NCBI RefSeq assembly: GCF_004010195.1
Contig: NC_057718.1
Span: 80,502,765 to 80,542,160 of the forward strand
Direction: 5' to 3'
Length of the DNA stretch: 39,396 bases
From: Chiloscyllium plagiosum
Lineage: Eukaryota
Shown: piece by piece, positions 3,059 through 35,094 of the stretch
Layout: each line of letters begins with the position of its first letter
Position numbering within the stretch: the stretch's first letter is position 1
Program-made: the position numbers and the translations under genes
Notes under the pieces: model-generated
What the model was told of the DNA's origin: nothing
Database searches by the model: none
The model's input: the letters and a program-made list of their open reading frames with translations, nothing else

Positions 3059-3059
3059 T

Positions 3060-4890: not shown

Positions 4891-4980
4891 GGGGCGCAAC
4901 GAAGATTCACCACACTTCTTTCCGGGAAGGTAGGAATGTCCTATGGGGAAAGATTGGGTAAACAGGGCCTGTATTCTCTG

Positions 4981-5305
4981 CCATGATTTGGAGATGCCAG
5001 TGTTGGACTGGGGTGTACAAAGTTAAAAATCATACAACACCAGGTTTAACTGGAAGCACTAGCTTCGGAATGCTGCTCCTTCATCAGGTGGTAGTGTAGT
5101 ATAAGATCGTAGGACATAGAAAAAGCTTATAATGTGATGTAACTGAAATTATATATTGAAAAAGACCTGGATTGATTGTTAACAATTCTGTGTCCTACAA
5201 TCTTATACTCCACAACCACCTGATGAAGGAGCAGTGCTCCGAAAGCTAGTCCTTCCAAATAAACCTATTGGACTATAACCTGGTGTTGTGCGATTTTTAA
5301 CTTTA
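4981..5305. mobile_element. PLE inverted-pair insertion (two pseudo-LTR 3' ends)
   Basis: Left arm is the reverse complement of the right arm; TSD TATTCTCTG at 4972-4980 and 5306-5314; hammerhead cores in both arms. Confidence 0.85.
5217..5251 (+). ncRNA. Minimal type I hammerhead ribozyme motif (PLE)
   Basis: CUGAUGA (5220-5226), stem II GGAGC/GCUCC, GAAA (5241-5244), palindromic AGCU, CUA triplet; stem I weakened. Confidence 0.6.
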
Positions 5306-6129
5306 TATTCTCTGCACTATCAAAGAATGTAAAATGATCTCACCAAAACCTAAAAAATACTTTAAAAAGATAGACAGGATAAACTAAGATGTTTCCCTTG
5401 AGTGTGAAGTCTACAAAAAAGATGAGGAGATTTGATTTTACTCAGAAGGTGGTGAATCTTTGGAGTTCTTGATCCAGAGTGTTGTGGAAATTTCAGTCTT
5501 TGAGTATACTTAAAGTAGAGATTGAGACATTTTTATTATGAATAGTTTAAAGGATTATGGAAAAGTGATGATAAAACAAATTGAAATGTCATGATCATGT
5601 TGAATAGAGAGTACGTTCAATGGGATGAATGGCCCATTCCTATTCCCATGTTCCTTTCTTATTAAATGCTAATTCTGCTCCTGTTTCATTGATGTGTAAT
5701 TTGCCATATCCTTTCTAAGGATTTTTTTTCTAGCATTGTGTCAAAACAACATTTCCAAAAAATCGTGATTTAAGCTGTGAAACTGAAAGCTACCTGGAGT
5801 ACTTTACTGAAGTAGTTACTAAACTGAACTCTTATGCCCTATAGAAAAAGAGACCAGATGCCAGAAGCAGGTCCAATTGAGAAAAAGATCCATACCAGCA
5901 GAAAGACACTTCAGTTTTGGAAACCAATATATCTGGAAAGGAATTATATGCTGCTTTATCAGTCCAATAGAATGAGCTGGAAAAAAATCTGAGTTTTACT
6001 TCAGTGAGGAAAATCAGAAAGCTATCTGTGTTTCTCTTCTTTTATGAAATACACTAATTCTATTTATTCAGAAGTATAATAGCAGCCTTGCATTTATATG
6101 TTCAGTGACTGACAACATGTAAGTAAGTA

Positions 6130-6500
6130 TGTAAAGCAATTATGAAGGCAAAAGGAATATTCGTCTTCATTGTAAGTAGGCTAGAGCACAGGAGGAAGAA
6201 AACCTTCCCACAATTCTACAAGACTTTAAAGAGAGCAGACTTGGAGTACAGTACACAGTTTTTAAGGAAGGATGTACGCACACAAGTGCCAATACGACAA
6301 ACGTTTACTAGGTTATTATCCTGGAATGACAGGATTATTCTACAATGGGTTACTGAGTAAATCAAACTTAAACTCTGAAGCTTAGAAGAATGAGAAGTGA
6401 CCTAATTGAACTGTATAAGATTTTGAAGGGGCTTGATACATTGAGACATTATAACATGTATGAGGATTCTAGAAAAAAAGGGCAGAATCTTAGATGCAAA
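6130..6500 (+). mobile_element. Degenerate CR1 ORF2 C-terminal fragment
   Basis: KAKGIFVFIVSRLEH…QFYKTLKRADLEYSTQF…RKD, then RRMRSDLIELYKILKGLD. Confidence 0.7.
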
Positions 6501-6989
6501 CTATCCGACTTGTGACAGAATCATGCAAGTCCAGAGAGCTTATCTTAACATAGGGAGCAACATGCTGCATCTTTTATGCATCCGCCAAACAGCGGAACTG
6601 CCACTAGACAGCAACAACTGGACTCGAACTCAGAATGATCAAAGACAGGATGCTGTCCACAGAAGGGCTGAGGAGCAAATATTGGATAGTCCACCAACTG
6701 CCCGGATGCTTTCTACTTTAGTGTAAGATGTTTTCTTCCTAGAATATGAAAAAGACATATCAAAGGCAATGAACTCCGGTGAAACAACTGTTGTTTTTGA
6801 TGCAGATGGAGAGATGTCCCGAATGAGTCAGTAGGCAGTGCAGAGGGCATGCTGATTTATGTTTTCAGGTGGATAGGTGGATGACAGCAAGTAAGGGAAT
6901 ATACTGTGGGCAAAAATGTGAGTGGTAGAGCCTTGGTGGCAGGTGGATACGATAGCAGAGATGTGCAATATCAGAGAGAAGATGGTGCC

Positions 6990-7225
6990 ACTTAAACTGG
7001 TAGAGTGGAGGTTATTGACCTTTTTCTAACATTGCCGTGCATTCCCATAAACAGCTGAGACTGCAGTGACCTGGGTGGCAATCTTGTACCAATTTGATAC
7101 ATGATCTGGTATCATGGCCTCCTCTGCTAGTCCTTGAGGAAGAGGATACCGTGCATGTGCACTGTCTGTATAGTAGAACCTTCAGATACCTGCCTGCAAA
7201 GCAGGGCAAGAGATTTCCCTTGTAT
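6990..7225 (-). pseudogene. Fossil Myb/SANT-like DNA-binding domain (Harbinger ORF2-like)
   Basis: Across frameshifts reads PCFAGRYLKVLL…GILFLKD*QRRP…WYKIATQVTAVSAVYGNARQC*KKVNNL, matching the F…L..LL / W..IA..V…R…QC.KK.N.L pattern. Confidence 0.55.
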
Positions 7226-7289
7226 GCCACATCTGGGGTATTGTCAGGAGCTGGGCATCGCAGTTCCAGACTGACAGTTGTTATCTCAA

Positions 7290-7462
7290 TTATTGGAGTT
7301 TATCTCTCTCTGCACCTTCTCCATAGCTGTAATACATTATTCTGCATTCTGTTCTATTATCCTGATATACTTATGTAAGGCATGCTTTGTCTGCTAGCAC
7401 ACAAAACAATACTTTTCACTGTATCTCAGTACATGTGACAATAATAAATCAAATCAAATAAA
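7290..7462 (+). mobile_element. 3'UTR/tail of a Rex1/Babar-like LINE
   Basis: …aaaacaatacttttcactgtatctcagtacatgtgacaataataaatcaaatcaaat with an (ATCAA)n tail; family assignment from memory. Confidence 0.55.
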
Positions 7463-7729
7463 CCTGCTGCCTCAAACACAAAGGGACATTACTCAGACCA
7501 GCCCTACACTGTATGTGCATCTCAAAGGGTCACAAATGCAAGCCTGAACATCATATGCATGATAAGCACACATAGGCTTGCAACACCTCATGTTCCCAAA
7601 CTACAAACTCTTCCACGACATTGCACTTCTACTCACATACTGGAGATAGTGCAACTCCTCTTACCGTTATGTATGCTCACAGTGCTCTCCTGCACCTATT
7701 GCCATTAACCTCAATCTTTCTATCCAAGT

Positions 7730-7870
7730 ACAGGAAAATCTGGCCCTCTGGAGAGGACCAAGCAGGGCAAAGAAGTTCTGAACATCAAAATTCCTATCCC
7801 CTTGGAGGAAAGAGTACTAAAGCTGTCTGGGTAAGACTGTTATCATTCCTATGGTGATGGGAGACAGGAA
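7730..7870 (+). pseudogene. Possible downstream segment of a Myb/SANT (Harbinger-like) ORF
   Basis: ERTKQGKEVLNIKIPIPLEERVLKLSG*D resembles the ER.KTGGG…LTPLEERVL motif that follows these domains. Confidence 0.35.
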
Positions 7871-9319: not shown

Positions 9320-9448
9320 TTCATCAGGAAGGGCTTATGCCCGAAACGTCGATTCTCCTGCTCCTCAGATGCTGCATGACCTGCTGTGCTTTTCCAGCAC
9401 CTCACTCTCGACTCTGATCTCCAGCATCTGCAGTCCTCACTTTCTCCT
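9320..9448 (+). mobile_element. PLE pseudo-LTR/tail fragment
   Basis: aagggcttatgcccgaaacgtcgatt…ctcactttctcct; close reverse complement of 39159-39280. Confidence 0.85.
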
Positions 9449-9459
9449 AACTTAGAATA

Positions 9460-9655
9460 TCACCATTACGTCACTGTCTCTAAGTCAAAAATGCTGAAAC
9501 TCCCTTCCCAACAGCACTTTGGATGTATTTATGTCTCATGGACTGTAGTGGTTCAAGAAAAAGAGCTCACCAAAACCTTCTCAAGAGCAATTTGGGTTGG
9601 GCAATAAGTGCTTGGCTAGTCAGTGATGCCCATAATTCATGAACAAATAAAAACA
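9460..9655 (+). mobile_element. Degenerate LINE 3' end, family unassigned
   Basis: …tggttcaagaa…ctcacc..ccttctcaag.gcaatt…gggcaataa…gatgccca…gaacaaataaaa resembles a common chondrichthyan LINE tail. Confidence 0.4.
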
Positions 9656-12641: not shown

Positions 12642-12774
12642 ACAATCAGAACTTCATCAGAAGTCACCGGATTCCAAACACTAACTCAACTTTCTCCCCA
12701 CAGATACTGTGTTTTGCCAGCAATTTCTGTTTTTGTTTCAGATCTGCAGCTTCCACAATTCTTAATTTGATTTT
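12642..12774 (+). mobile_element. Old PLE tail fragment with a 13-bp TSD
   Basis: AAGAAATTCCAAG at 12629-12641 and 12775-12787 flanks a …ccagcaatttctgtttttgtttcagat… tail. Confidence 0.65.
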
Positions 12775-12842
12775 AAGAAATTCCAAGGATTGAAAATGGA
12801 TCTCTAAGAAAGTGCTACAAGGACCTCAGAAGAAAATCCATT

Positions 12843-14530
12843 TGTGTTTACTGTGGAAAAGGACATGGAAGATATAGAATGTAGGGAAATAGACAGCTTG
12901 GAAAATCTCCAAATTACAGAGGAGGAAGTGCTGGATGTCTTGAAATGTATAAAAGTGGATAAATCCCCAGGACCTGATCAGGTGTACCCTAGAACTCTAT
13001 GGGAAGCTATGAATGTGATTGCTGGGCCTCTTGCTGAGATATTTGTACCATTGATAGTCACAAGTGAGGTGCTGGAAGACTGGAGGTTAGCTAATGTGGT
13101 ACTACTATTTAAGAAAGGTGTTAAGGACAAGCCAGGGAACGATAGACCAGTGAGCCTGAAGTCGGTGGTGGGCAAGTTGTTGGAGGGAATCCTGAAGGAC
13201 AGGATGTACATGTATTTGGAAAGGCAAGGACTGATTAGGGATAGTCAACATGGCTTTGTGTGTGGGAAATCATGTCTCACAAACCTGATAGAGTTTTTTT
13301 GAAGAAGTAACAAAGAAGATTGATGAGGGCAGAGTGGTAGATGTGACCTATATGGACTTCAGTAAAGCATTCAACAAGGTTCCCCATGGGAGACTGGTTA
13401 GCAAGGTTAGAGCTCATGGAATACAGGGAGAACTAGCCATTTGGATACATAACTGGCTCAAAGGCAGAAGACAGAGGGTGGTGGTGGAGGGTTGTTTTTC
13501 AGACTGGAGGCCTATGACCAGTGGAGTGCCACAAGAATCAGTGCTGGGTCCACAACCTTTCATCATTTATTATAAATGATTTGGATGTGAGCATGAGAGG
13601 TATAGTTAGTAAGTTTGTAGATGACACCAAAATTGGAGGTGTAGTGGACAGCGAAGAAGGGCATCTCAAATTACAACGGGATCTTTATCAGATGGGCCAA
13701 CGGGCTGAGGAGTGGCAGATACAGTTTAATTTACGTAAATGCGAGGTGCTGCATTTTGAGAAAGCAAATCATAGCAGGACTTATACACTTAATGGTAAGG
13801 TCCTAGGGAGTGTTGCTGAAGGAAGAGACCTTGGAGTACAGGTTCATAGTTTCTTGAAAGTAGAGTCGCAGGTAGATAAGATAGTGAAGAAGGTGTTTGG
13901 TATGCTTTCTTTTATTGGTCACAGTATTGAGTACAGGAGTTGGGAGGTCATCTGATGGCTGTACAGAACATTGGTTACGCCATTTTTGGAATATTGTGTG
14001 CAATTCAGGTCTCCTTCCTATCGGAAGGACGTTGTGAAACTTGAAAGGGTTCAGAAAAGATTTACAAGGATGTTGCCAGAATTGGAGGATTTGAGCTATA
14101 GGGAGAGTTTGAATAGGCTAGGGCTGTTTTCCCTGGAGCGTTGGAGGCTGAGGGGTGACTTTATAGAGGTCTATAAAATCATGAGGGACATAGATATGAT
14201 AAATAGACAAGGTCTTTTCCCTGGGGTGGGGGAGTCCAGAACTTGAGGGCATAGGTTTAGGGTGAGAGGGGAAAGATATAAAAGGGACTTAAGGGGCAAC
14301 TTTTTCACGCAGAGGGTGGTGCATGTGGGGAATGGGCTGTCAGAGGAAGTGCTGGAGGCTAGTACAATTGCAACATTTAAAAGGAAACTGGATGGGTATA
14401 TGAATAGAAAGAGTTTGGAGGGATATGGGCCGGGTGCTGGCAGGTGGGACTAGATTGGGGTGGGATATCTGGTCGGCATGGACAAGTTGGACCAAAGAGT
14501 CTGTTTCCATGCTGTACATCTCTATGAGTC
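12843..14530 (+). mobile_element. 5'-truncated CR1 (HER1-like) LINE: RT domain + 3'UTR, frameshifted
   Basis: KSPGPDQVYPR, DWRLANV..LFKKG, SQHGF…SCLTNL, DFSKAF.KVPH, GVPQ.SVLGP, KFVDDTK, LEYCVQF.SP; tail ctgtacatctctatga. Confidence 0.95.
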
Positions 14531-17712: not shown

Positions 17713-18473
17713 TGAAGTGGCCCAGGAGTGGAAAAAGACCATGATCAGCATTGGGGTTTTGGTTAGGAAAGGAAGATGACATGATCGGGTGGTGTACTTG
17801 AAGGCCTTTTGAGGAGTGTATCTGTTCTTCCTGGCCCACAAAATAATTGTGAGGTTTTGAGAACACTCCCAAATAGGTTGCAAGTTTTTATTTAAAAAGA
17901 GGCAGATAGAAAAAATTGAGAAATACAGTCCAGTTCGCATCACAGAATCCATCACTAAGGATGTTTTAACAATGCTTTAACTAACCTCATTTATTATCAG
18001 GCACCACAACTCACAAGAATGGTAGAAACAGGAGTTGAAACAGTAGGCTAGTTGGTTCCACCGGTCAATAAGAAATAGCCTCAACTTCACTTTTTCATCT
18101 ATAACCTTCTCCCTTGTCAATTGAAAAGCTAACTCAGCCTTGAATATATACAATGAGCCTCGACTGCTCACTGAGGGAAAGAATCAAAACACTTCTTATG
18201 CTCTGACAGCGAAGAAAAAAATCTTCACCATCAGTTTAAATGGGAGACCAATTATTTTAAAACTGTATCCTGAATTCTTGATTCACCCTCTCAGCAGCTA
18301 GCCTGTAAAGGTTAACTCTCAGCTATTGAGTAAATCACTTTGGATTCATTTCATAATCACATCTAATTATAGAGATTAGTTACAGAATGCCTCGTCCCTG
18401 TTACAACAGCATTGCAAATTATGCATTTTGACACTGGACTAAAATTTCTAACCACTGCATCTTGTTTCACTAA

Positions 18474-18679
18474 ACAAAAAAACCAAAGAACTGTAGTTGC
18501 TGAAAATCAGAAACAAAAACAGAAGGGTCACTAGACCTGAAATGTTAATTCTGCTTTCTCGCAACAGATGCTGCTCGACCTGCTGATTTTCACTTGACCC
18601 AAAATGTTAATTTTGCTTTCTCTCAACAGATGCTTCCAGACCTGCTGATTTTTCCCAGCAATTTCTGTTTTTGCTTCTG
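18474..18679. mobile_element. Old PLE inverted-pair insertion with an internal tandem duplication
   Basis: Inverted tail arms; TSD-like ATCTTGTTTCACTAA (18459-18473) / ATCTTGTTCCACCAA (18680-18694). Confidence 0.65.
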
Positions 18680-19943
18680 ATCTTGTTCCACCAATTAGTT
18701 TGTTTCCCTTGCGTCCCATGGAAATTATCGCCAAACTTTTATATATGGAAGAATATTTTCAAAAATAAATAGAGGATTTTCTGAATGGTTTTCCCCAGCA
18801 GAATTTCAAAGTTCACAGAGGTCATCAACATAGCAATCTTTGTCACAGCTTTGGTTTGGTTGACGGAGAGAGGGGGAGTGCTGACTCAATCCTTGTGGAC
18901 CATCTATGTACAGGTAGTTCTCCTATAATGTGTATTTATTACACACAATTTGGCTGTAACACAATTGGTGAATTGTGGACTTTTTTTTTACAAAGCAAAT
19001 TTCCATTTGCTATTCTGCGATTCCATCCCCAGCATTTACCTGAACTGCAAAATACAAAATGCAGCCTCATGATCCTTTGCCTGCAAAATGTAAATTCAGT
19101 GCGTTCTGCTAATACATGAATGCAATCAGCTCTGCAAGCGTTGAAAGTTAGCTTGAAACTGGGAATTGTAGTGTACATTTAGAAAGAACTTTATTTCAAA
19201 CTGGGAGAGAATTTTGAGGAGGACTGGACTTCTGCATCGGCACCACATGGTCAGTCGACTCGTGCTTTCTGGTGAAGTGCTTCGTGAAAATACAGTCAGT
19301 GATTTTAGTGTTCAAGCATTAAATTTACCATATTATTTCATTAAAATACACGGTTTAAAGATTTACTTGACTGTGCTATCGTTTGTGTTTAGCCAACTAT
19401 TATTTTTGGCTGTTTGCCCCCAAACCCTGTTTTTCCCATAGGCACCATTATTTGTATTGCGTGATTTTCTATAACACGGTATTGCACACGAATGCAACTA
19501 ACACATTATAGGAGAAATACCTCTAATTCAATTGAAGTTTCAAGGCTTTGGATCTATAGGCAGTCAATTTCAATTCTAAAACCAAAAGGATACATACAAT
19601 GCAGAACAAAGATGGAGAATGCATATTTGCTCATTTCTATATTGTGCATCAAGTATTAATAGTCAGAAAATGTCAATCTCAAGTTGTGTCTTATCCAAAT
19701 GCATATAGTATTACAAATAGATAACAAGAAACAAAATATGCTCAACAAAATCTATCCTTTTTTCTAAATAAGACAACAAGCCATATGGAATGCTTCTTGT
19801 GCAACTCAAGTCAGGACTGGTTTCCCTGGCACATTATAAACTGTACTGCATAATCAATGAATTTAATAATTTAATTGCCTAGTTTCTTGCTGGTCTGTAA
19901 TTATCTTTCTTATAGAGAGAGATCCAATTTCTTAAACGTAAAG

Positions 19944-20015
19944 TCCTCGGTAGTATAGTGGTTAGTATCCCCGCCTGTCACGCGGGAGACCGGGGTTCAA
20001 TTCCCCGCCGGGGAG
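19944..20015 (+). tRNA. tRNA-Asp-GTC: tRNA-Asp (anticodon GTC)
   Basis: 72-nt cloverleaf; acceptor TCCTCGG/CCGGGGA, discriminator G, anticodon at 19977-19979, A box TAGTATAGTGG, B box GGTTCAATTCC. Confidence 0.97.
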
Positions 20016-20020
20016 GAACA

Positions 20021-21180: not shown

Positions 21181-23225
21181 GTAAGTAGCTTCATTGGACC
21201 ACATGATTAAAAGCAAACTGCAAGCTACTTCAACCTTCCTCTTATTATGACGTGTGTTAAAAACGAAAATTTTCTTAGCACGATCTCATTATTCTTAGTT
21301 TTAAATTTGCACGAGTTCAGCGCCTCCAAATTTACACGATAATTCTTCTACAATAACGAGGTATATTTTATACCACCTTTTCCAGTGAAGCATCGAGCTT
21401 GTCTGTTTTCAGTTCGCAAGGTAAGACTAAGAATAAAACTTCGAACTGCATGTTCAGAAAAGTTTCACAAGTGTAATTCTCAGAGATTGGAACAATTAGA
21501 CGACAGAATGATTCATTTCGTATATAGTTGCTGTCGTTAAAAGTCATTTGTTAAAAATCTCTGAAACTCCAGCAGCCTTATTTAGCAAGTATTCTAATCA
21601 TCCAGACTGGGAACATAGTAGGTTCTGGCGCTGATCTGTCTTGAATTAAGCAACGTCAGGTCGGTCAGTGGTTTTCAAGATGCACGTATCTGAAATACTG
21701 TGGTTACTAGAAATCTGAAATAAAAACAAACTGCTTAAATTACTGTAGGTCAGGCAGCATTTCTTTCAGGTCAATTATCTTTTGACTTTTTTTCATGCTG
21801 CAGTTGACTTCAGCACCACCAGGCCAGGAAGGGTAAAATTCGTCGTGTTCTGCTCCAACAAGGGGCACGTTGTTAAGTACCCTCTTGACATTCACCATTC
21901 ACAAGATACCATATGATGACTGCTGTCTGTAATGTAATATACCCTGACGAGGGAATGTCAGGAGAGGGAACATGTGATAATTACTAAGAATCCTCGGGTG
22001 TTTATTTTAAATAAAGTGTCAAGTCCCTACATCACCAAGAAACAGGCGACATTACATCAGGAAAAGCACGCTACCAACTGACTAGAGTGGCCAGCGCCTG
22101 AGGATAAATCAATCAAATAGGATTCTCATATTGACAGCAGAAAGGAGTTTGTGGCTGGAGAGGAGGCCTTCCTAGTGTTTAACTCGAGTAAATTACAGCT
22201 CATCCATGATTGTATATTGACCAAACAGTCCAGCAACACCCAGATTGACAGAAGTAGCACTGGGTGTTGTCAATAATTGCTACATGATATGATGTTTTGG
22301 AGCTGTTAGCTTTTAGTTTTTCTTTAATCAACGTGTTCAGAAATGCAATTTACACCATTAGAGCAGATGGGACTTGAACTTCTCTGTGTTTTGTACAGAG
22401 ATCACTGAAAGTTCACAACCAGTGAAAGAAACTGTAGTTAAAGAAACCAGGGCCTTTGGTTATATTAATAGAATAATTCACTATTAATCAAAGCACACCA
22501 TTCTTTTTTTAAGCTATTGATTCGGTGTCATCAGGTGTAACAAGTCCAATGCTGCTGCCCTCTATTTTACTCATCTTTCTGATTCTGTTCTTTGTAAATA
22601 CTTCAAACCTCCCCCTGCAAGTGTGTCTCTGCTCTGATTTGACTTGTGCAACACTCTCTTTGCCACCAAAACTTGATGCATCCCCGTAATCTGTGTTCTG
22701 CTTTTTTCCTTGTCTACCAATTGCTCTGGACAAGTTATAATCAGATGAACTGACAGCATTATTACATTTTAGGAGAAAAAACTGGTCAGTAGGGAAATAT
22801 GTGTGTAAGAGTTGAAAATTATGTAAGAAAGTATTTGAATTTGAAGGAAAAACATATCTGTGTATCAGGCAAAAACAGAACACTTCAGCAAATAGCGGGG
22901 GAGTATTTGTTTACAAATTCAGAGAGCAGACATCACATTTAAGCTTTTGAAAATGACAGAAAATTGCATTTATGTCTTTGGGAGCACATTGTATTAATTC
23001 AAGGCAAACCGGCAAGTGCTGGGGAAATATTTAATTATTTTTATGTCTGAAGAAATGCATTGAATTCTGAATGGAAAAACCAGCAGCAGGGAAGTATTCA
23101 CTCTTTATATACAGTATTGCTCTACAAATAGTGCCACTAATTGGCAATAGAGGATAGCCTATTTAAAGGAATATGTTATCTGAGAGTCAGTTTATTTATC
23201 ACAGAGAACAAGTACCAGGAAAGAT

Positions 23226-23804
23226 GGGATGTAGGTTAGCTTGCCGAGCTGCAAGGTTCATTTCCAGACGTTTCGTCACCCTACTAGGTAACATCTTCAG
23301 TGGGCCTCCGGGCAAAGTGCTTCTGATGATTCCTGCTTTCTATTTGTATGTTTGGGTTTCTTTGGGTTTGTGATGTCATTTCCTGTGGTGATGTCATTTC
23401 CTGTTCTTTTTCTCAGGGGGTGGAAGATGGGGTCTAACCCAATGTGTTTGTTGATAGAGTTCTAGTTGGAATGCCATACTTCTAGGAATTCTCGTGCGTG
23501 TCTCCGTTTAGCTTGTTCTAGGATGCATGTGTAGTCCCAGTCGAAATGGTGTCCTTCCTTATCTGTGTGTAAAGGTACTAGTGAGAGAGGGTCATGTTGT
23601 TTTGTGGTTAGTTGATGTTCATGTATCCTGGTGGCTAGTTTTCTGCCTGGATAGAAAGCTGGAATCATCAGCAGTGCTTCGCCCGGAGGCCCACTGAAGA
23701 GGTTACCTAGTAGGGTGACGAAACAGCTGGAAATCAACTTTCCAGCTCAGCGAGCAAACCTACATCCAGAACCTCAACCTGAGCTACAAATCTTCTCAAA
23801 ACTC
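23226..23804. mobile_element. PLE (Poseidon-like) inverted-pair insertion
   Basis: Minus arm ~23226-23650 encodes the GIY-YIG C-terminus (RKLATRIHEHQL…HFDWD…REFLEVWHS); plus arm ~23651-23804; TSD ACCAGGAAAGAT at 23214-23225 and 23805-23816. Confidence 0.92.
23263..23304 (-). ncRNA. Minimal type I hammerhead ribozyme motif, core intact
   Basis: Minus strand: CCA-CUGAAGA-U-GUUACC-UAGUAG-GGUGAC-GAAA-C-GUC-UGG. Confidence 0.8.
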
Positions 23805-23873
23805 ACCAGGAAAGATTAGCAGAAAATGAATCTCCAAATCTTCAAATTTTCTGAATTTATGGACAGTTGATTG

Positions 23874-25663
23874 ATTTGTTGTGGTTCTGTTCGCCAAGCT
23901 GGGAATTTGTGTTGCAGACGTGTCGTCCCCTGTCTAGGTGACATCCTCAGTGCTTGGGAGCCTTCTGTGAAGCGCTTCTCTGTTGTTTCCTCCAGCATTT
24001 ATAGTGGTTTGTCTCTGCCGCTTCCGGTTGTCAGTTCCAGCTGTCCGCTGCAGTGGCTGGTATATTGGGTCCAGGTCGATGTGTTTGCTGATAGAATCTG
24101 TGGATGAGTGCCATGCCTCTAGGAATTCCCTGGCTGTTCTCTATTTGGCTTGTCCTATAGTAGTAGTGTTATCCCAGTCAAACTCATGTTGCTTGTCATC
24201 TGCGTGTGTGGCTACTAAGGATAGCTGGTCGTGTCGTTTCGTGGCTAGATGGTGTTCATGGATACGGATTGTTAGCTGTCTTCCTTTTTGTCCTATGTTG
24301 TGTTTTGTGCAGTCCTTGCATGGGATTTTGTACACTACATTGGTTTTGCTCATGCTGGGTATCGGGTCCTTTGTCCTGGTGAGTTGTTGTCTGAGAGTGG
24401 CTGTTGGTTTGTGTGCTGTTATGAGTCCTAGTGTTCGTAGTAGTCTGGCTGTCAGTTTAGAAATGTTTTTGCTGTATGGTAACGTGGCTAGTCCTTTGGG
24501 TTGTGGAATGTCCTCACTCTGTTGCCTTTCCCTTAGGCATCTGTTGTTGAAATTGCGGGGGTATCCGTTTTTGGCGAATACATTGTAGAGGTGTTCTTCT
24601 TCCTCTTTTTGCAATTCTGGTGTACTGCAGTGTGTTGTGGCCCTTTTGAATAGTGTCTTGATGCAACTTCTTTTGTGTGTGTTGGGGTGGTTGCTTTCGT
24701 AGTTCAAGACTTGGTCTGTGTGTGTGGCTTTCCTGTATACCTTTGTTGTGAATTCTCCGTTCGGTGTTCTCTGTACCATCATGTTGATTGTGGAGTTGAA
24801 TGGGAGTTGATTGTCCTTTTTTCCCTCTCTAGTGAATCTGATTCCTGTGAGTGTGGCTTTGATGATCTGGTGTGTATTTTCTATTTCTGTGTTTTTAATG
24901 ATTACAAAGATAATCATTTGTAAACCTTTGTAATCATTAAAAACACAGAAATAGAAAACACACACCAGATGCCTAAGGGAAAGGCAACAGAGTGAGGACA
25001 TTCCACAACCCAAAGGACTAGCCACGTTACCATACATCAAGAACATTTCTGAACTGACAGCCAGACTACTACGACCACTAGGACTCATAACAGCACACAA
25101 ACCAACAGCCACTCTCAGACAACAACTCACCAGGACAAAGGACCCGATACCCAGCATGAGCAAAACCAACATAGTGGACAAAATCCCATGCAAGGACTGC
25201 ACAAAACACGACATAGGACAAAAAGGAAAACGGCTAACAATCCGTATCCATGAACACCATCTAGCCACGAAACGACACGACCAGCTATCCTTAGTAGCCA
25301 CACACGCAGATGACAAGCAATATGAGTTCACCTGGGACAACACTACTATTATAGGACAAGCCAAACAGAGAACAGCCAGGGAATTCCTAGAGGCATGGCA
25401 CTCATCAACAGATTCTAACAACAAACACATCGACCTGGACCCAATATACCAGCCACTGCAGCGGACAGCTGGAACTGACAACCGGAAGCGGCAGAGACAA
25501 ACCACTATAAATGCTGGAGAAAACAACACAGAAGCACTTCACAGGAGGCTTCCAAGCACTGAGGATGTCACCTAGACAGGGGTTGAAACGTCTGCAACAC
25601 AAATTCCCAGCTCAGCGAACAGAACCGCAACAACGAGCATTCGAGCTACAAAGCTTCTCACAA
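23874..25663. mobile_element. PLE (Poseidon-like) ~1.8-kb fold-back insertion: RT C-terminus + GIY-YIG + pseudo-LTR on each arm
   Basis: FTTKVYRKATHTDQVLNYESNHP, LPY…, NVVYKIPCKDC..H.IGQ.G; arms are reverse complements around ~24917; TSD AGTTGATTG at 23865-23873 and 25664-25672. Confidence 0.95.
25556..25595 (+). ncRNA. Minimal hammerhead motif; core intact, stem II base weakened
   Basis: GCA-CUGAGGA-UGUCACCUAGACAGGGGUU-GAAA-C-GUC-UGC. Confidence 0.6.
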
Positions 25664-26110
25664 AGTTGATTGCTGACTTTTTAAATAAATCAATGTGTAG
25701 AATTAAGGTTATCTGTGCGAAAGGAGGACAAAACAAGAATTCAATAGGAAACCATGTTCGTGGAGTAACTATGGTCTGCAACTACATTTAACAATCAACC
25801 TTTTGAGTGGGAAATTGGCCATTAGAAGTTTTGACATTAACCCTGTCAATGTTGGCATAAAAGCTTTTACAAAATGTGTGACTAAATTTCACAGAATGGA
25901 AGTGTCTGAATGTGCAAAATTTCAAAGTATGTGTAATAGATATGATAGTTATTGTGTAATGTCTATCTTTTAAGGGTACATTTCTTCAAATTGTCTGTTT
26001 TATGCAAAAATGAAAGTTCAACCTACAATTCTTGTCAACAAACAAGTTTCAGGATATTTTGTTTTGTTTTCTAAGTAGTGGCTGCAACATACAGGTAGAC
26101 AGATAATTTG

Positions 26111-26556
26111 ATGTTAGCGAGTTTTGAGAAGACTTGTAGCTCAGGTGAACCATAACAAACACTACATTGGACAAACAGGCAGAAAACTAGCCACCAGGAT
26201 ACATGAACATCACCTCACCACAAAAAGACTTCACTCACTCTTATATTTACATACGGATGAGGAAAGACACCACTCCAACTGGGACAACACATCCATCTTA
26301 GGACAAGCCAAACAGAGACAGGAATGAGAATTCCTGGAAGCATGGCATTACAACTGAAACTCTATCAACAAACACATTGACTTGGATCCCACTTACGAGC
26401 CTCTGAGAAAAAGAATAGGAAATGACATCATCACCAACCCAAAGGAATCCCAAACACATAAATAGAAAGCGGGCTACACCACCAGTGCTTCATCCGGAGG
26501 CTCACTGAAGATGTTACCTAGTATGGTGATGAAACGTGTGAAAACGAACCTTCATC
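26111..26556. mobile_element. PLE insertion: short inverted tail plus a plus-strand GIY-YIG/pseudo-LTR arm
   Basis: KHYIGQTGRKLATRIHEH; hammerhead core at 26505-26538 with a non-cleavable GUG triplet; TSD CAGATAATTTG at 26100-26110 and 26557-26567. Confidence 0.9.
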
Positions 26557-26744
26557 CAGATAATTTGTTGGATTCTGATCCTTGGTTTAAAGGTGCACTG
26601 GTCCTGACATTAATTGAAAAGTGACTTCCACATGTAGTTGGAATTTGTCAGGCAAAATCCAGAAATCAATTCAGTAGTTCGGAAGCCGTGATAGAACTAA
26701 TTGTTCCAATTATGTTGTTAACTTCCAGGCTTTGAAAATGTAAT

Positions 26745-27200
26745 AAACAGGAGTTGGAGCTCATCATCCTTCGTCTTCCAATTTGTATAATAATGGGTGA
26801 TCTTCTGCCTCAGCTTTCCTGCCTGGTCCCATGCTCCTTGACTCTCAAAGACACTAAAAATCTATCTCTCCCTTGAATATACTCAATGACAGAAGATCTA
26901 CAACCACTTGGGTATACAATTCTAAATATTCACACAACCTCTGAGTGAAGAGATTTTTCTTCATCTTTGTCATAAATGCTCATCCCCCTTATTCTGACAC
27001 ATCACCCTCATTCTTCACTTCCACAACCAGAGAAAACAACTTCTCAATGTCAACCCTATCAAGCCACTGTAGATTGTACTGAAGTGAGTTCTCATTCTTT
27101 TAAACTCCAGAGAATTAAGGCACAAATTACACAGCTCTTCCTCACTGATCAAACCTGTCATCCAAGGAACCAAGCGAGTGAACCGACACTACTTATTTGT
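26745..27200 (-). mobile_element. Degenerate CR1 3' fragment
   Basis: ctctgagtgaagagattttt, ccttgaatatactcaatgac and ctcattcttttaaactccagag are reverse complements of CR1 ORF2-end/3'UTR motifs. Confidence 0.6.
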
Positions 27201-27459
27201 CATCTCTATGAACTGTACTATTTTCATGGACTCGACCTAGTCTGTGTCACACAAGCCTTATAGATTCGAGCTAGTCTGGGCATTGAGTGCCTATTCTGCA
27301 TTTGTGATACTGCTCTCCTTAGCTGAACCGTCCCTGCTCTAAGTCTACTGCACCTTTGTCTTATTTATCTGGACGTGACTATTGTCTGACTCTCAGGCAT
27401 TTCGGTAAATTCTTTATTTATATTCTAATATACAAATAATATGTGAATCCTGACCAGAG

Positions 27460-28999
27460 CCCTGGTGCCAGGATCAAGGATGTCTCAGAGAGGGTGCAGA
27501 ATATTCTCACGGGGGAGAGGGGCCAGCAGGAGGTCATTGTCCACATTGGAACCAACGACATTGGAAGGGAAAAGGTTGAGACTCTGAAGGGAGATTACAG
27601 AGAGTTAGGCAGAAATTTAAAAAGGAGGTCCTCAAGGGTAGTAATATCTGGATTACTCCCAGTGCTACGAGCTAGTGAGGGCAGGAATAGGAGGATAGAG
27701 CAGATGAATCATAGCTGAGGAGCAGGTGTATGGGAGAAGGATTCACATTTTTGGATCATTGGAATGTCTTTTGGGGTAGAAGTGACCTGTGCAAGAAGGA
27801 CGGATTGCACCTAAATTGGAAGGGGACGAATGTACTGGCAGGGAAAATTGCTAGAATTGCTCAGGAGGATTTAAACTAGTAAGGTCGGGGGATGGGACCC
27901 AGGGAGATAGTGAGGAAAGAGATCGATCTGAGATGGGTACAGCTGAGAACAGAAGTGAATCAAACAGTCAGGGCAGGCAGGGACAAGGTAGGACTAATAA
28001 ATTAAACAGCATTTATTTCAATGCAAGGGGCCTAACAGGGAAGGCAGATGAACTCAGGGCATGGTTAGCAACATGGGACTGGGATATCATAGCAATTGCG
28101 GAAACATGGCTCAGGGATGGGTAGGACTGGCAGCTTAATGTTCCAGGATAGAAATGCTACAGAAAAGATAGAAAGGGAGGCAAGAGAGGAGGGGGAGTGG
28201 CATTTTTCATAAGGGCTAGCATTACAGCTATGCTGAGGGAGGATATTCCCGGAAATACATCTAGGGAAGTTATTTGGGTGGAACTGAGAAATAAGAAAGG
28301 GATGATCACCTTATTGGGATAGTATTATAGATCCCCCAGTAGTCAGAGGAAAATGAAGAAGGCATTTGGTATGCTTTCCTTTATTGGTCAGAGTATTGAG
28401 TACAGGAGTTGGGAGGTTATGTTGCGGCTATACAGGACATTGGTTAGGCCACTGTTGGAGTATTGCATGCAATTCTGGTCTCCTTCCTATTGGAAAGATG
28501 TTATGAAACTTGAAAGGGTTCAGAAAAGATTTACAAGGATGTTGCCAGGGTTGGAAGATCTGAGCTATAGGGAGAGGCTGAACAGGCTGGGACTGTTTTC
28601 CCTGGAGCATCGGAGGCTGAGGGGTGACCTTATAGACATTTACAAAATTATGAGGGGCTTGGAAGGGGTAAATAGACAAAGTCTTTTCCCTGGGGTGGGG
28701 AGTCCAGAACTGGAGAACATAGGTTTAGGTTGAGAGGGGAAAGATATAAAAGAAATCTGAGGGACAACGTTTTCACATGGAGGGTGGTATGTGTATGGAA
28801 GGAGCTGCCAGAGGAAGTGGTGGAGGCTGGTACAATTGCAACATTTAGAAGGCAATTGGATAGGTATATGAATAGGAAGGGTTTGGAGGGATATGGGCCG
28901 GGTGCTGGCAGGTGGGACTAGATTGGGTTGGGATATCTGGTCGGCATGGACGGGTTGGACCGAAGGGTTTGTTTCCATGCTGTACATCTCTATGACTCT
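27460..28999 (+). mobile_element. CR1 LINE with a large internal deletion: ORF1 esterase end and ORF2 endonuclease start fused at ~28352 to the ORF2 C-terminus and 3'UTR
   Basis: PGARIKDV…VHIGTNDIG (SGNH), YFNARGL…IIAIAETWL (APE), then KKAFGMLSFIGQSIEYRSWEV; 3' part closely matches 13883-14530. Confidence 0.93.
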
Positions 29000-30066
29000 T
29001 CAGTACAATTATTTTATTCCTTTTTGAGTATAAATAGCATGGTGACTTGATGTTAGAATTACATCATGTGTATCATCATTAACACATTTATTCCTGTTAG
29101 TGTAAATGTTTCAACTCTAAGTCAATTATAAATAAAAGCAAGCATCTGAAATAAAACAATGTTGGAGAAATTCAGCAGGTTTGGTAGCATCTGTGGAGAA
29201 AGAAACAAAGCCAATAGCAAATCAAGTATAGCTCAGCATATTATTGGTGTGGTCTGACAGGTCTTTCTACAATTGCTATAGGCTCCTTTATTCTTGTAAT
29301 CCAAACATCTTGGAATTAAGATCAACATTACATTTTTTCCCTCCATTGTTTGCTGTATCTGCATTTGCTGAACCTATTAACTTACTGCATTTCATATGTC
29401 AGTATATCTCAATCTCTGAACATAAACAATTCCAAGTTTCAAAGGTTGACCAAATGCTTTGTTAGCCGATTACTTTTTCAAAAGGGAACAACCTGACACC
29501 TCCACTTAAAAAACAGATCCATCATCTATTTAGCACTGAGACTTTTAACCATCAAAGTTTCCACTTTTTGGAATTTCTGCACTGAAATGTTCCAGCTGCT
29601 TCAGTTTTGTCTCAACACTATCCTTAAAGCATATTTTCAAACAGCTTTTAATGTTTTATGCTTTGCAGTTCCTTTTCTTGGCTTCTATCATGCTTTTGTC
29701 AAGTGTTTTCTATTCCAAAGTTGCTATGTAAATGTAAGTTATTCTTATCTAACTTATCAATTAGATCAGCTAAAGTCGAATATTTCTCATTAAAATGATC
29801 ACTTCCAATATCAGATTTTAAAAACTTCAATATTTCTTTATTTAGTGGCACTTTCAAAACACAAAATATACTTAGCAGTGTTATGTAATCAGATTTGTTA
29901 TTATGCAGTTCTTTATGGTCTGTTTTGATAGCACAAGTAACAACATTAGAGAATACTAATGCTGATATTGCATGCAGCTGCTGATTTGCCCCTGAACTTC
30001 AACCTCCCATGATGACCAGTTAATTGTTCCGAGATGGATCAGGATGCTTGCAATCTTATAATAGTT

Positions 30067-30497
30067 AACAAAGTTAAAATTTACACAACACCAGGTTATA
30101 GTCCAACAGGTTTATTTGGAAGAACAAGCTTTCAGTGCGCTGCTCCTTCATCAGGTATCTAGTGGAGTAGGATCATAGGACACAAAATTTATAGCAAAAG
30201 ATCATAGTATCATACAAGAGGTGCAATATATTGAACAAACCGAGATTGCTGTTAAGTCTTTCATCATGCAACAATCGCCAGACAAGGCTATTACCTCCCA
30301 TTGGGTGAACACTTTAGCGGTCAGGGAAATTCAGCCTCGGATCTTCAGGTGACCGTCCTCCAAGGCGGACTTCAGGATACACAAGAGTGGCCAAACAGAC
30401 GCTGATAGCCAAGTTCGGTACCCATGTGGATGGTCTCAACTGGAAACTTTCGTTCATGCCACATTACAGGTGACCCCACTACACTCTACACCCACTC
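30067..30497. mobile_element. PLE (Neptune-like) inverted pair; right tail lost
   Basis: Minus pseudo-LTR of the 4981 family (hammerhead core ~30127-30154), then plus-strand LPLGEHFSGQGNSASDLQVTVLQGG…LIAKFGTHVDGLN. Confidence 0.8.
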
Positions 30498-30502
30498 GCT
30501 CA

Positions 30503-30910
30503 CGCTGTTTTCATTAGAGAGAGGAAGATTGAGAGGTGACTTAATTGAGGCATATAAGATAATCGGAGGGTTAGATAAGGGGACAGTGAGAACCCTTTTC
30601 CTCGGATGGTGATGGCGAGCACGAGGGGACATAGTTTTAATTTGAGGGATGATAGGTATAGGGCAGATGTCAGATGTAGCTTCCTTACTTAGAGTACTAA
30701 TGATGTGGAACGTCCTGCCTGCAATAGTAGCAGACTCGCCAACTTTAAGGGTATTTAAATGGCCATTGGATAAACATACGGATGAAAATGGATTAGTGTT
30801 GGATTCAAAGTCTTCAGATTGGTTCCACAGGTCAGCACAACATCAAGGGCTGAAGGGCCTGTACTGTGCTGTATTGTTCTATGTTCTACGTTCTATGTCC
30901 TATGTCTATG
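30503..30910 (+). mobile_element. CR1 3' fragment
   Basis: LFSLERGRLRGDLIEAYKII; 3'UTR gggctgaagggcctgtactgtgctg with a (TTCTATG)n-like tail. Confidence 0.85.
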
Positions 30911-33097
30911 TATTAATATACTGTTCCAATAAAACACTTATTTAAATTACATCAACTTAATTTCAAAACCATACAGTGGCTGTCATCTTTGGTGTATGTC
31001 GTCTTGCAGCTGAAGATCTCCCTGGGTTGTCTTTTTTTTTACTGCGAATATGTTTCATACGAACAGGTGCCTTTGATAGAGACTGTTTCCTAATTGATGG
31101 CAGTTAGTCCATCAGATTTTCAAAATACCTGCCTTTTTTATACCCCCAGAATTGGTTCAATGTTGGGAAAACAATAAATTCAAATGCAATTGAGTTTTAG
31201 TATCCAGGGCCATAATAGGTTAAATTTGAATTGTTGTCAAAACATCAACCAACTCAGGTATCCATTTCACAGCCAAATGTTACGTATTTTCAATTTTCCA
31301 GTACACTCTGAGACTGCTATCTAGTGATATCACAGGTGTTCAGTTCAGAACAGTATTCACTGTCTCACAATACACACTTTCAACTTCATAACAGGTGCAC
31401 ACCAAACAACTGCCAGTAGCTTACAGACCTATGATATCAGTGTGCAATACTGATTTTATGTCAATTTTGTTATTTTCAAACACCCATCCTCCAGCCTGTG
31501 CCCAGCCTTAATTTCATATAGCTGAACACCGTATTAAATGGCATGAGGAACCATCATCAATGCTACTTAAATTGATCATAAACTATTTAAAGCTTATAGA
31601 TTCAGAGAGTCACACAGCAGCTTGGCTGTTGTTGCAATACAGTTTTGGAACCCTGCTGCACTTTGAGCAGTCTGCAGAGCTCTGAAGTGATTGTTTTATT
31701 CATTTAAAAGCTTGTGTTGAAACAAATTGCTTCCAGAATTGGGTGGCCTGATGCGTCCCTCTGTTAGAACTGAAAGTAAGGAATTCCAACTCTTGGAAGA
31801 GAAAGGCAGAGAGAAGGACTCTGAAGATATCTGCCAGTAGGTTTTTGGGGAGCAATTTGCTTTTGTCAGTTTCAGCAAGGATTTATGCATAAAAAGTCTT
31901 TAATTTATCAAAACTTTCAGAAATCTGCCAGCTATTGCAGCTGTAAATAGAAACTCAAACTAAGGCAAGAACAGGAGTGCCTGCAGCCAGCAAGGTAATT
32001 ATGGCTCTTAACATTTATTCTCTTCATTCTTTTCAGGCTGCTGCTGGAGATTCAGACAGCAATTCACATGTTTTAGTACACAACAGCAAAAGGAAGTTCA
32101 CTCAGATTTTCCATATCCTGAGATACAGCTTCATATCATTTCCTTCGCCGAAACAGTTGGATTGTCATGGTGTAAGATACCATTGATTGTACATACATTG
32201 CCTTGCTTGCACCTTGTGCTGTCTTCCATTTCACTGAGCCGAAAGGGATTCTAGACCCTCAGTGTGTAGCTAGTTTGTGATCACAGGCAGGCGAATACTC
32301 AGTATCCTGCAAGTACTGTAGTTTAATCTGTGATAGTCCTGAGTGCCAATTCCATTTGAACTACCATGAGAAGTCAAAGGCTGGTTACTGAGCTACAAGG
32401 CTTTATCATTCCTATCTATATCCACATGCTTACACACACCAGGCATACAATGAGACCCATTAAACCATAAATATTATAGAACAACCATCAGTATCCAAAG
32501 CACTTCTGGTAGCTGGATCACTATGAAACAGCACTAACTGCTCAATTGAGTGCTGGTCAAGATTTACAATTACATACATGTTACATAACCTGTCCATAAT
32601 GAGGGAAAGGTCTTTGCTACCACATTACAGGTGTAAGACTGAGAAACAAGGTTAAGAGGGAGGGTGGAGCACATCAAGAAGTGGGTAAGATGAGTTGGAA
32701 GGAAGAATACAATATAGACAACCCTCTTTTATCTCATGCTTCATGCAAGTGAGTAAATGCATTAATTTTAGCTAGCCAAATCTCTTCTTTCACAAACAGT
32801 CCTCTTTCCCCCCTACCTGTCCTCAGTGATTAAGTATCAAATTATTCTCTTGGCAAAAACATAAAAATACAAACCACCCGAAAATGTATATTCAATCAAT
32901 ATTTATTAATTAAAATATTACATAATTCAAAACAAAATAAATTAATAATTCTTATGTGTCCACTTAGTAAAGCCTTCTCTGTGTTTTTGCTGCTCATTGT
33001 GTTTCTGCGAGATGTAAGCCCTCTGGCTGAGGCATGAGTATCGAAAGGTTGCTAACCTCTAATTAAGGAGAGGGCAGATGACATTGGAGAATGAGCT

Positions 33098-33285
33098 TAT
33101 GCTGGAGATCATAGCACGTAAGGCAGCATCCATGGAGAGAAAGCAAGGTAATGTTTCTAATCTGAAGTCATCTAGACTCAAAATGGTAGCTTGGTTTCTC
33201 TCCATGGATGATGCCTGACATGCTGTGATCTCCAGCATTTTTTGTTTTCGGTTCAGATTCCAGCATCTGCGTAATTTGCTCCTGT
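33098..33285. mobile_element. Old PLE-tail inverted pair
   Basis: atgctggagatcatagca…ggcagcatccatggagagaaa is mirrored by tttctctccatggatgatgcc…tgtgatctccagcat; no convincing TSD. Confidence 0.6.
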
Positions 33286-33289
33286 AAGA

Positions 33290-33570
33290 ACTTGAGAGAT
33301 ACAGCTTAAAGTAATTGACAAAAGAAGCAAAAGATATGAGAAAAACTTGTTCATTAGGCAATTGCTTCAGGTCTGGAATGCACTGCCTGAGAGTGGAATC
33401 AGGTTCAATGGCAATAGCCTAATTCTCTTTTAAATGCTACCTGAGAAGGAAGAATGTGCAGGGTTATGGGAAGAAGACGAGAAAATGCCACTTGCTCATT
33501 TTGAGAGCTGCTTTAGAATTGTTGGGCAAATTGGCTCCCTTTCTGCACAGCAATAATTCTGTGATTTAAA
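33290..33570 (+). mobile_element. Degenerate CR1 3' end
   Basis: tctggaatgcactgcctgagag…gcagggttatgggaaga…gggcaaattggctcc. Confidence 0.55.
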
Positions 33571-33873
33571 GGTTTAACTTGCAAGGTCATTACACTTTTT
33601 TTCTTACAATGCATCTCTAATCTTGTAGCAATTTCTAGCATTGACTTCCACTGCTGCCTTTTTGCTTCACTTTCTAAGCATGTGACTGCCTGCCCTCCAT
33701 ATGAAACAGGATATTTCCCCTCCTTTCTATCTCTTCACCATAAACCTTTAGTGTAATGTTGGAAAATATTGTGCATGCTCTCTTGTATATTAAGCTATTG
33801 CTCAAAGTATTAGAGCACATAATCTGTTTTCAAATCACTTCCAGTACTTATTACAGCCATTGTCCAAACTTTT

Positions 33874-34292
33874 GGATGTAGATTTGCTGGCTGAGCTGAA
33901 AGGTTGATTTCCAGTTCGACTGGGACAATATATCCATCCTCGGACAAGCCAAACAAAGACACGCATAAGAATTCCTGGAAGCATGGCATTCCAACCGGAA
34001 CTCGATCAATAAACACATCGAGTTAGACCCCATCTACCACCCACTGAGAAAAGGAACAGGAAGTGACTTCACCACAGGAAATTAGATCACCACAGGAAAT
34101 TACATTACCAACCCAAAGGAACCCAAGCATATAAATAGAAAGCAGGAATTTTCAGCATTGCTTTGCATGAGATCCACTGAAGATGTTACCTAGTAAGGTA
34201 ACGAAACGTCTGGAAATGAACCTTTCAGCTCAGCGAACAAACCTCCATTCAAAAGCTCAACCAAAGCTAAAAATCTTCTCAAAACTTGCACA
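33874..34292. mobile_element. PLE inverted-pair insertion
   Basis: Short minus arm 33874-33914 plus a plus-strand arm (FDWDNISILGQAKQRHA*EFLEAWHS); TSD GTCCAAACTTTT at 33862-33873 and 34293-34304. Confidence 0.92.
34173..34214 (+). ncRNA. Minimal type I hammerhead ribozyme, best-preserved copy
   Basis: UCCA-CUGAAGA-U-GUUACCU-AGUA-AGGUAAC-GAAA-C-GUC-UGGA: 4-bp stem I, 7-bp stem II, ACGU palindrome; predicted cut after 34210. Confidence 0.85.
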
Positions 34293-34388
34293 GTCCAAAC
34301 TTTTAAAGGTGCAAGTTACTTTTGAATATTTCTAGCAGCCTGGTATATAAGGTCCTCTGTTGATGAAAGCAATTGATCAACAGTGTGA

Positions 34389-34965
34389 GTGAGGTAAAAA
34401 CAATGACTGCAGATGCTGGAAACCAGATTCTGGATTAGTGGTGCTGGAAGAGCACAGCAGTTCAAGCAGCATCCAAGGAGCAGCGAAATCGACGTTTTGG
34501 GCAAAAGCCCTTCATCAGGAATAAAGGCAGAGAGCCTGAAGCATGGAGAGATAAGCTAGAGGAGGGTGGGGGTGAGGAGAAAGTAGCATAGAGTANNNNN
34601 NNNNNNNNNNNNNNNNNNNNNNNNNNNNNNNNNNNNNNNNNNNNNNNNNNNNNNNNNNNNNNNNNNNAAACTTCCAGCTCAGCACTGTCCCCATGACTTG
34701 TCCAGACTTGTCCGACCTGCCTATCTCCTTTCCCACCTATCCACTCCACCCTCTCCTCCCTGACCTATCACCTTCATCCCCTCCCCCACTCACCTATTGT
34801 ACTCTATGCTACTTTCTCCTCATCCCCACCCTCCTCTACCTTATCTCTCCATGCTTCAGGCTCTCTGCCTTTATTCCTGATGAAGGGCCTTTGCCCGAAA
34901 CATCGATTTCGCTGCTCCTTGGATGCTGCCTGAACTGCTGTGCTCTTCCAGCACCACTAATCCAG
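34389..34965. mobile_element. PLE inverted-pair insertion with an assembly gap in the middle
   Basis: Reverse-complement arms; hammerhead cores at ~34491-34518 (minus, GAAA>AAAA) and 34877-34904 (plus); TSD AACAGTGTGA at 34379-34388 and 34966-34975. Confidence 0.9.
34596..34667. other. Assembly gap (72 N)
   Basis: Run of N. Confidence 1.
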
Positions 34966-35094
34966 AACAGTGTGACACTAGCTGCACTCAGTGATCATGT
35001 CAGATTGCAGGCAGTATAAAATTATTATGCTGCCTTCAATGTAAGTAAAGATACCTGTAAATTATGCATGACGATCCATGTTATTTTCCTTAAA

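Follow-up and report, generated by a model that had tools for sequence, protein, structure and literature searches.

Insertions of Penelope-like elements carry an inverted 5'-truncated copy with element ends facing outward, palindromes at the junction, a target-site duplication (TSD) of 8-10 bp around the whole unit and a 30-40 bp tail that is often one-sided (PMC3846280, PMC8557442, PMC2377424; a general scheme of the insertion unit is given in Fig. 2 of PMC8557442; these three papers and PMC2837659 are cited throughout for the sections drawn on here). In Pen2a of Adineta vaga, a TSD of 9-10 bp flanks a unit with an inverted pseudo-long terminal repeat (pseudo-LTR), and one of the inverted pseudo-LTRs bears a 31-bp tail (PMC3846280); the inverted form is the most frequent structure of Penelope in Drosophila virilis (PMC2377424). 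How such units form is still left open in PMC11167929 and PMC8557442. In the former study, of the lizard element Poseidon_Ac (PAc), both target strands were cut and extended in vitro, a dimer was predicted, and reverse transcription began at two sites that both lie inside the RNA, the tail being the stretch between them. For L1, twin and dual priming have been laid out (PMC2837659): both nicks prime, one at the poly(A) and one at a variable internal position, and the inverted, non-overlapping pieces meet within one TSD at a centre formed by microhomology or end-joining. Here we analysed a 39-kb repeat-rich window of vertebrate DNA (the whole 39,396-nucleotide stretch of Chiloscyllium plagiosum contig NC_057718.1) that holds seven inverted Penelope-like units, named U1-U7 by position. 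In every unit with two resolvable ends, one arm ends at an outer, long site and the other at an inner, short one. This strict pairing is the one fresh point of the analysis, a small and testable addition. A reading made earlier from the sequence (the original prediction) overstated the novelty of the units: the inverted architecture, its frequency and both ingredients of the mechanism it proposed are already in print, since the inverted pseudo-LTR with its TSD and one-sided tail, as well as two-strand extension in vitro, have been published.

The original prediction listed seven units from at least four Penelope families, each with outward-facing ends and a 9-15 bp duplication, and all seven were located (Table 1). 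The element end faces outward on both sides in 7/7, and a boundary search places a direct repeat of 9-14 bp around each: 10 nt exact in U1 (12 with one mismatch), 12 with one mismatch plus three extra bases on the left in U2, 12 in U3, 9 exact in U4 (11 with one mismatch), 11 in U5 (14 with one mismatch), 12 in U6 and 10 in U7. As a control, we scored edge repeats in 1500 random intervals matched in length to the units; an exact repeat of at least 9 nt was found in 0/1500, as was a repeat of at least 11 nt with one mismatch. U2 scored 0 exact and 12 with one mismatch in the same test. The TSDs, which vary in length, support the claim that each pair of arms arrived in one event. Poly(A) is present at 0/14 ends.

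A one-sided tail of 30-46 nt marks all seven units. The distance between the long and the short end is 36-38 nt in U1, 37 in U2, 36-37 in U3, 30 in U4, 42 in U6 and 41 in U7; in U5, judged by comparison with U3, it is about 43-46 nt. The one-sidedness described originally therefore stands, but the offset of about 30-40 nt had to be widened. Compared with the canonical units, as those are portrayed in the sections cited above, the shark units differ in being short stumps without a partial tandem of full open reading frames (ORFs) and in having tails of up to 41-46 nt in U5-U7. A recurrent short end-point had been proposed for three related units, and the short ends of these units (family A: U3, U5 and U6) indeed lie no more than 2 nt apart. 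Their long ends are more scattered, over about 8 nt, indicating that the short end is the more fixed of the two. The expectation that short ends often share 2-4 nt with the target was likewise borne out, with at least 2 nt shared in U1, U2, U5, U6 and U7.

The arms overlap in six of the seven units, with only about 20 nt in common in U2. U5 is the sole non-overlapping unit: it lacks mirrored arms, and its left arm is a 36-nt tail piece that shares nothing with the right arm. Alignable arms diverge by 4-13%. Central junctions, in the window and in the second set of loci described below, have 0-5 nt overlaps or 4-16 nt of filler; in U7 the centre is a 72-N gap that hides the junction. The long arm of U4 has suffered a 326-nt internal deletion after position 24970, with 5 nt of microhomology. 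RNA folds of four ends gave no structure in common at the two end-points.

The seven window units had been singled out by the original prediction for their pattern, and the pairing was therefore scored in a second set, Penelope relatives from metagenome contigs that were picked by reverse transcriptase (RT) match only. Among 74 loci fetched with 5-kb flanks, we analysed 30 that share a contig-name prefix and likely come from one eukaryote, unrelated to the shark; 9 others were screened for inverted repeats only and 35 were left out. Removal of L004 (the same unit as L003) and L037 (the same flank as L038) left 28 loci, a sample biased to long copies. Thirteen are inverted, 12 show no inverted arm and in 3 the left end is out of view. 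Both ends can be resolved in nine of the 13 inverted loci (L001, L003, L008, L024, L028, L029, L032, L060 and L063); in L014, L023, L026 and L053 one end is lost or out of view. All nine have a TSD of 12-15 nt, and the offset, scored in seven, is 30-37 nt. Four of the nine have the tail on their inverted arm, the other five on their direct arm. Every one of the nine combines a long with a short end, as do the seven window units, and none is long/long or short/short (0/9). If each side chose its site independently, the probability of nine mixed units in nine would be at most 0.002. An additional inverted unit in the window with both ends in place, at 33099, is one-sided too. This pairing is not what independent site choice would give; it hints at one particle that primes both sites. 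The canonical-unit accounts treat the tail as optional or often one-sided and, in the parts covered, give no count of long/short pairing; nor did we find one elsewhere in the literature searched, although older, subscription Penelope reviews may hold one.

Both end-points lie inside the element RNA; in U4 and in two second-set families they were placed downstream of the hammerhead ribozyme, among the first codons of the ORF. Translated, the last 156 nt of U4 correspond to residues 1-52 of P0010, whose predicted length is 656 residues; some 600 further residues of it, which lead on into the RT, follow the point where U4 ends. Two second-set families have a reading frame that stays open across both end-points, and in tandem copies the tail runs straight into the next unit or ORF (L001, L005, L006, L007 and L026). 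Together with a 63-nt tandem in U2, these run-throughs and U4 point to a pseudo-LTR that overlaps the ORF start in a partial or full tandem. We considered the long end as the 3' end of the transcript and rejected it, since that end lies inside the first codons of the ORF and continues in tandem copies. The original prediction had one strand primed at the RNA 3' end and the other at a fixed internal site; two fixed end-points were found, but the long one is internal as well (codon 52 in U4). The arrangement resembles that of PAc, whose two internal start sites are also in the 5' part of the ORF, downstream of the hammerhead. It differs in that the PAc priming site is non-homologous to the cut DNA, whereas overlaps of 2-5 nt are common here. 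The two start sites were not linked to the two ends of one inverted insertion in PMC11167929, nor in the other, mainly open, literature searched. L1-type twin priming was rejected as an account of the shark units, because they lack poly(A), both of their sites are fixed and internal, and their arms overlap in 6/7. The L1 model itself reportedly dates from 2001.

On the best reading of these data, endonuclease-bearing Penelope-like elements inserted here in the ordinary way, by two-sided target-primed reverse transcription. We put a probability of roughly 0.6 on the fuller proposal, in which priming occurs from both sides at two internal sites and is coupled, one side taking each. The GIY-YIG enzyme would nick both strands about 9-15 nt apart, a spacing suggested by the TSDs. 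Each freed 3' end would then prime at either of two preferred sites, which lie 30-46 nt from each other, and 2-5 nt of pairing would often help; for the anole element, priming at two internal sites was shown in vitro. The two cDNAs would halt at variable points and be joined head to head, presumably by end-joining. The nicks would not act independently but divide the outer and inner sites between them, and the simplest cause would be one ribonucleoprotein, probably a dimer, that holds both sites. Priming from one side only would yield the plain 5'-truncated copies that make up about half of the loci.

Two lines of evidence favor separately primed cDNAs, as originally proposed. First, the short-ended arm reaches further upstream in U3, U5, L003, L024, L028 and L032, and the tail arm does so in U6, L008, L029, L060 and L063. 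That either arm can extend beyond its partner is easier to explain with two cDNAs than with one molecule folded back on itself, and the overlaps and filler at the central junctions also favor two. Second, at least two bases are shared with the target at 11/14 short ends (5/7 in the window and 6/7 in the second set) and at 4/7 second-set long ends. The chance of this is 7% for one random side and about 18% if both sides count. Sharing at both kinds of end fits primer-template pairing at both sites.

A more specific version, which we regard as possible but rather less than an even bet, has one dimeric particle holding one RNA, with two RT active sites 30-46 nt apart that are each primed by one strand. 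The trailing RT might stall behind the leading one, a case that could be illustrated by the tail-only arm of U5, which halts with about 10 nt to go to the inner site. Alternatively, the trailing RT might displace the leading cDNA and follow, sometimes to the same template end (U4, L008). If this were true, the length of the tail would measure how far apart the two RT active sites are set, and Penelope would integrate by programmed twin priming and not, as in L1, by occasional error. Should the pairing rule hold genome-wide, it would cheaply tell one-particle twin priming from independent priming; a direct prediction for the PAc in-vitro system follows from it as well. As for the inverted structure, it is a textbook feature of Penelope-like elements, of importance chiefly to repeat annotation.

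Several observations weigh against coupled two-sided priming. The short ends of U3 and U4 share 0 bases with the target. The arms of U4 stop at the same inner element position around a 16-nt filler and those of L008 stop within 19 nt of each other, near-equal stops that a fold-back explains more simply. The two strands did not differ in their start sites in PMC11167929, pairing within one target molecule lay outside the tests of that study, and its element is from a lizard and is not one of the families considered here. The claim of one event per unit rests on the TSDs, because we obtained no empty site: there was none among the joints and pieces listed from related organisms (15 of 6355 joints and 24 of 773687 pieces), and these relatives mostly share the insertions. 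Finally, the sample is one 39-kb window and 28 loci of one other organism.

A fold-back of a single cDNA is the alternative that survives best, and we judge it unlikely. The cDNA begun at the outer site would copy itself, and the return strand would be cut or stopped 30-46 nt short and joined to the second nick; the cut might be the endonuclease resolving its own tail, a source of the tail suggested by PMC8557442, and unpaired centres would stem from later deletion of an unstable palindrome. The strict pairing would follow directly, junction palindromes were read as self-priming in PMC3846280, and L008 and the 33099 unit are nearly symmetric. We retain the model because the filler of U4 and the microhomology deletion in one of its arms are the traces expected of a fold-back with subsequent palindrome decay. 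However, the tail arm lacks sequence of the short-ended arm in U3, U5, L003, L024, L028 and L032, and each of these would need a later deletion, even though the mirrored arms of L003, L024, L028 and L032 are still 99.4-100% identical. The tail arm of U5 has zero overlap with its partner, and PMC11167929 maps initiation of reverse transcription to both ends of the tail.

Less probable still is priming by two independent particles or RNAs with either start site free on each side, the pairing being an effect of sampling or of survival, such as the loss of units with fully symmetric ends. Dual priming of this kind was proposed for L1 (PMC2837659); it agrees with the identical start sites on the two strands of PAc, and two templates would need no strand displacement to give the overlapping arms of 6/7 window units, which were, moreover, chosen for their pattern. 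What it does not account for is the uniform mixture in 9/9 units picked by RT match, and an asymmetry of 30-45 nt should hardly affect the survival of arms of 1-2 kb. Neighbouring insertions, later recombination or assembly artefacts are very improbable sources of the units: the N gap in U7, the lack of an empty site and the difficulty that long inverted structures pose for short-read assembly (PMC8557442) speak for them, but each pair lies inside a single TSD, mis-assembly would give exact copies and not arms 4-13% apart, and contigs of two related organisms cross junctions of U4, U5 and U6.

These organisms, B and C, were compared with the window over 24975-34590 using four public runs, a range that leaves U1-U3 outside. 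Contigs of both start in the U4 tail and continue through its TSD and unique flank into the left arm of U5, and contigs of both cross the two sides of the 33099 unit. Further junctions are crossed at the right of U5 and at 30067 (B) and at the left of U6 (C). Contigs that span several junctions show that the units are not assembly artefacts, as the divergence of the arms had also suggested, and the insertions at these junctions are older than the split from B and C. Contigs from two B runs leave the window at 33846, 16 nt before the left TSD of U6, and run on for 399 letters; C has the left junction of U6. Six of the 15 listed joints (of 6355) map to the U7 family, at 34390-34393 and 34427-34430. 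The latter coincide exactly with the short end-point of U7, indicating that other copies end there too; the former are uninformative because alignments cannot pass the window copy's own end. For the same reason, and because subfamilies have their breaks elsewhere, the raw reads give no ratio of long to short ends.

The four families called for in the original prediction are present: A (U3, U5 and U6) with a 68-76% relative (U4), B (U1), C (U7) and D (U2). The closest protein relatives come from carpet sharks. A U4 fragment is 87% similar to P0002, a Chiloscyllium punctatum protein with PF00078 and PF26215, and contains the motif VYKIPC..C...IGQ.GR; U3, U5 and U6 match the same proteins. A direct Pfam scan gave no match for two U4 fragments or for a fragment at 36534-36911. 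By similarity and domain order, we place the elements among the endonuclease-bearing Penelope-like elements, with a predicted ORF that encodes RT and then a C-terminal GIY-YIG domain. U1, U2 and U7 are non-coding stumps whose probable assignment rests on the hammerhead core, the structure of the ends and, for family D, an attached decayed RT ORF: a D-type end at 35105 adjoins such an ORF, relatives of which carry PF00078, PF26215 and in some cases PF01541. Family B stands head to head with a fragment that weakly matches P0023 (E 4e-4), and no coding link was found for family C. These non-coding families may be Neptune-like.

A scan for the CUGAnGA-stem-GAAA motif located hammerhead cores in arms of U1, U3, U5, U6 and U7; the core of U4 was seen by alignment only and that of U2 is truncated. 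Rfam returned no hammerhead match at E 1 or below. Its microRNA matches at 24863-24972 are far under the gathering scores, correspond to the central hairpin of U4 and were rejected. Pattern scans with a family B hammerhead motif found nothing in viral contigs or in metagenome contigs (0 matches each). A DNA transposon or miniature inverted-repeat transposable element was ruled out by the unequal arms, the coding RT and endonuclease and the variable TSD, and an LTR or DIRS element by the absence of such termini and the presence of a GIY-YIG domain. The Penelope families are very abundant in the shark, raw-read depth at the family ends being in the thousands versus 0-4 on unique DNA.

The original prediction also held the inverted form to be the dominant mode of integration, and the counts do not bear this out. 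A profile scan found 16 Penelope-end loci in the window, of which 7 have the full signature and 9 are inverted; together with the 13 of 28 in the second set, this makes the inverted mode common, at about half of the loci, rather than clearly dominant. The two inverted loci without a usable TSD are 33099-33284, which is near-symmetric with an unconvincing candidate of 6 nt, and 30067-30500, where the right end is replaced by a 3' piece of a long interspersed nuclear element (LINE) and no TSD can be tested. Six loci are single-armed (9320, 11566, 12643, 21692, 29140 and 35105) and one further locus runs off the window. Of the single-armed loci only 12643 has a TSD (13-16 nt); none was found at 9320, 11566, 21692, 29140, 30067, 35105 or 39159.

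Table 1 Inverted Penelope-like units of the window and their flanking duplications
Feature	Position	Strand	Remarks
U1 left TSD copy	4972..4981		12 nt with one mismatch if 4970-4981 / 5304-5315
U1 long arm, family B	4982..5174	-	tail 4982-5017/5019; hammerhead-like core 5063-5087
U1 short-ended arm	5176..5305	+	hammerhead core 5220-5244
U1 right TSD copy	5306..5315		
U2 left TSD copy	18459..18470		
U2 long arm, family D	18471..18527	-	37-nt tail plus ~20 nt common to right arm
U2 short-ended arm	18528..18679	+	internal 63-nt tandem duplication
U2 right TSD copy	18680..18691		1 mismatch
U3 left TSD copy	23214..23225		
U3 short-ended arm, family A	23226..23649	-	predicted C-terminal GIY-YIG region; hammerhead core 23271-23300
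U3 long arm	23651..23804	+	hammerhead core 23694-23723; tail 23768-23804
U3 right TSD copy	23805..23816		
U4 left TSD copy	23865..23875		9 exact, 11 with one mismatch
U4 short-ended arm	23876..24909	-	predicted C-terminal RT region and GIY-YIG endonuclease, Penelope/Poseidon-type ORF
U4 central 16-nt filler	24910..24925		between arms
U4 long arm	24926..25663	+	tail 25634-25663, end at codon 52 of ORF N-terminus
U4 right TSD copy	25664..25674		
U5 left TSD copy	26100..26110		
U5 tail-only arm (36 nt)	26111..26146	-	inner end ~10 nt outside short end-point
U5 short-ended arm, family A	26148..26556	+	hammerhead core 26505-26534; ~19-nt deletion just before end
U5 right TSD copy	26557..26567		
Family B short end	30067..30500		minus arm 30067-30255 head to head with plus-strand endonuclease-like fragment
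Inverted unit, family D-like, absent from original prediction	33099..33284		65-nt arms, 10-nt centre, extension on right only
U6 left TSD copy	33862..33873		
U6 short-ended arm (41 nt), family A	33874..33914	-	
U6 long arm	33912..34292	+	hammerhead core 34177-34206; tail 34251-34292
U6 right TSD copy	34293..34304		
U7 left TSD copy	34379..34388		
U7 long arm, family C	34389..34595	-	tail 34389-34429; hammerhead-like core 34495-34518; enters N gap
72-N assembly gap over U7 central junction	34596..34667		
U7 short-ended arm	34668..34965	+	hammerhead core 34877-34900
U7 right TSD copy	34966..34975		

The double-ended units are clustered, with three in the 3.3 kb from 23226 to 26556, where U3 and U4 are only 48 nt apart, and three in the 1.9 kb from 33099 to 34965. 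The centre of 33099-33284 falls at the hammerhead stem, and its short end, at an internal repeat, is displaced about 17 nt upstream relative to that of U2. In the single-armed stumps 9320-9452 and 12643-12774 the inner end falls at the hammerhead core, and its first 9 nt or so read as the reverse complement of that core. A second clade of Penelope-like elements is represented at 35105-37340 by a decayed copy on the minus strand, with putative RT and endonuclease remains; this copy has the D-type end, and neither a second arm nor a TSD was found for it. In the second set, the direct arm of L024 begins exactly at the tail (3891), in L029 a 78-nt repeat (6407-6484) comes after the short end and stops at the long site, the right end of L063 contains an insertion of about 300 nt (6474-6780), and the inverted junction of L060 is present twice (1334-6533).

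Elsewhere in the window, an endogenous retrovirus remnant extends over 875-2994 on the plus strand, with an integrase C-terminal domain (PF18697) followed by env-like ORFs; env is spread over two frames near 2400-2440, and its second piece carries PF00429. A tRNA gene with anticodon GTC (Asp; Rfam 60.5 bits) stands isolated among repeats at 19944-20015. Three LINE fragments, at 13885-14530, 27450-28999 and 30503-30910, are presumably CR1-like and have very high copy in the reads; one of them has replaced the right end of the Penelope unit at 30067.

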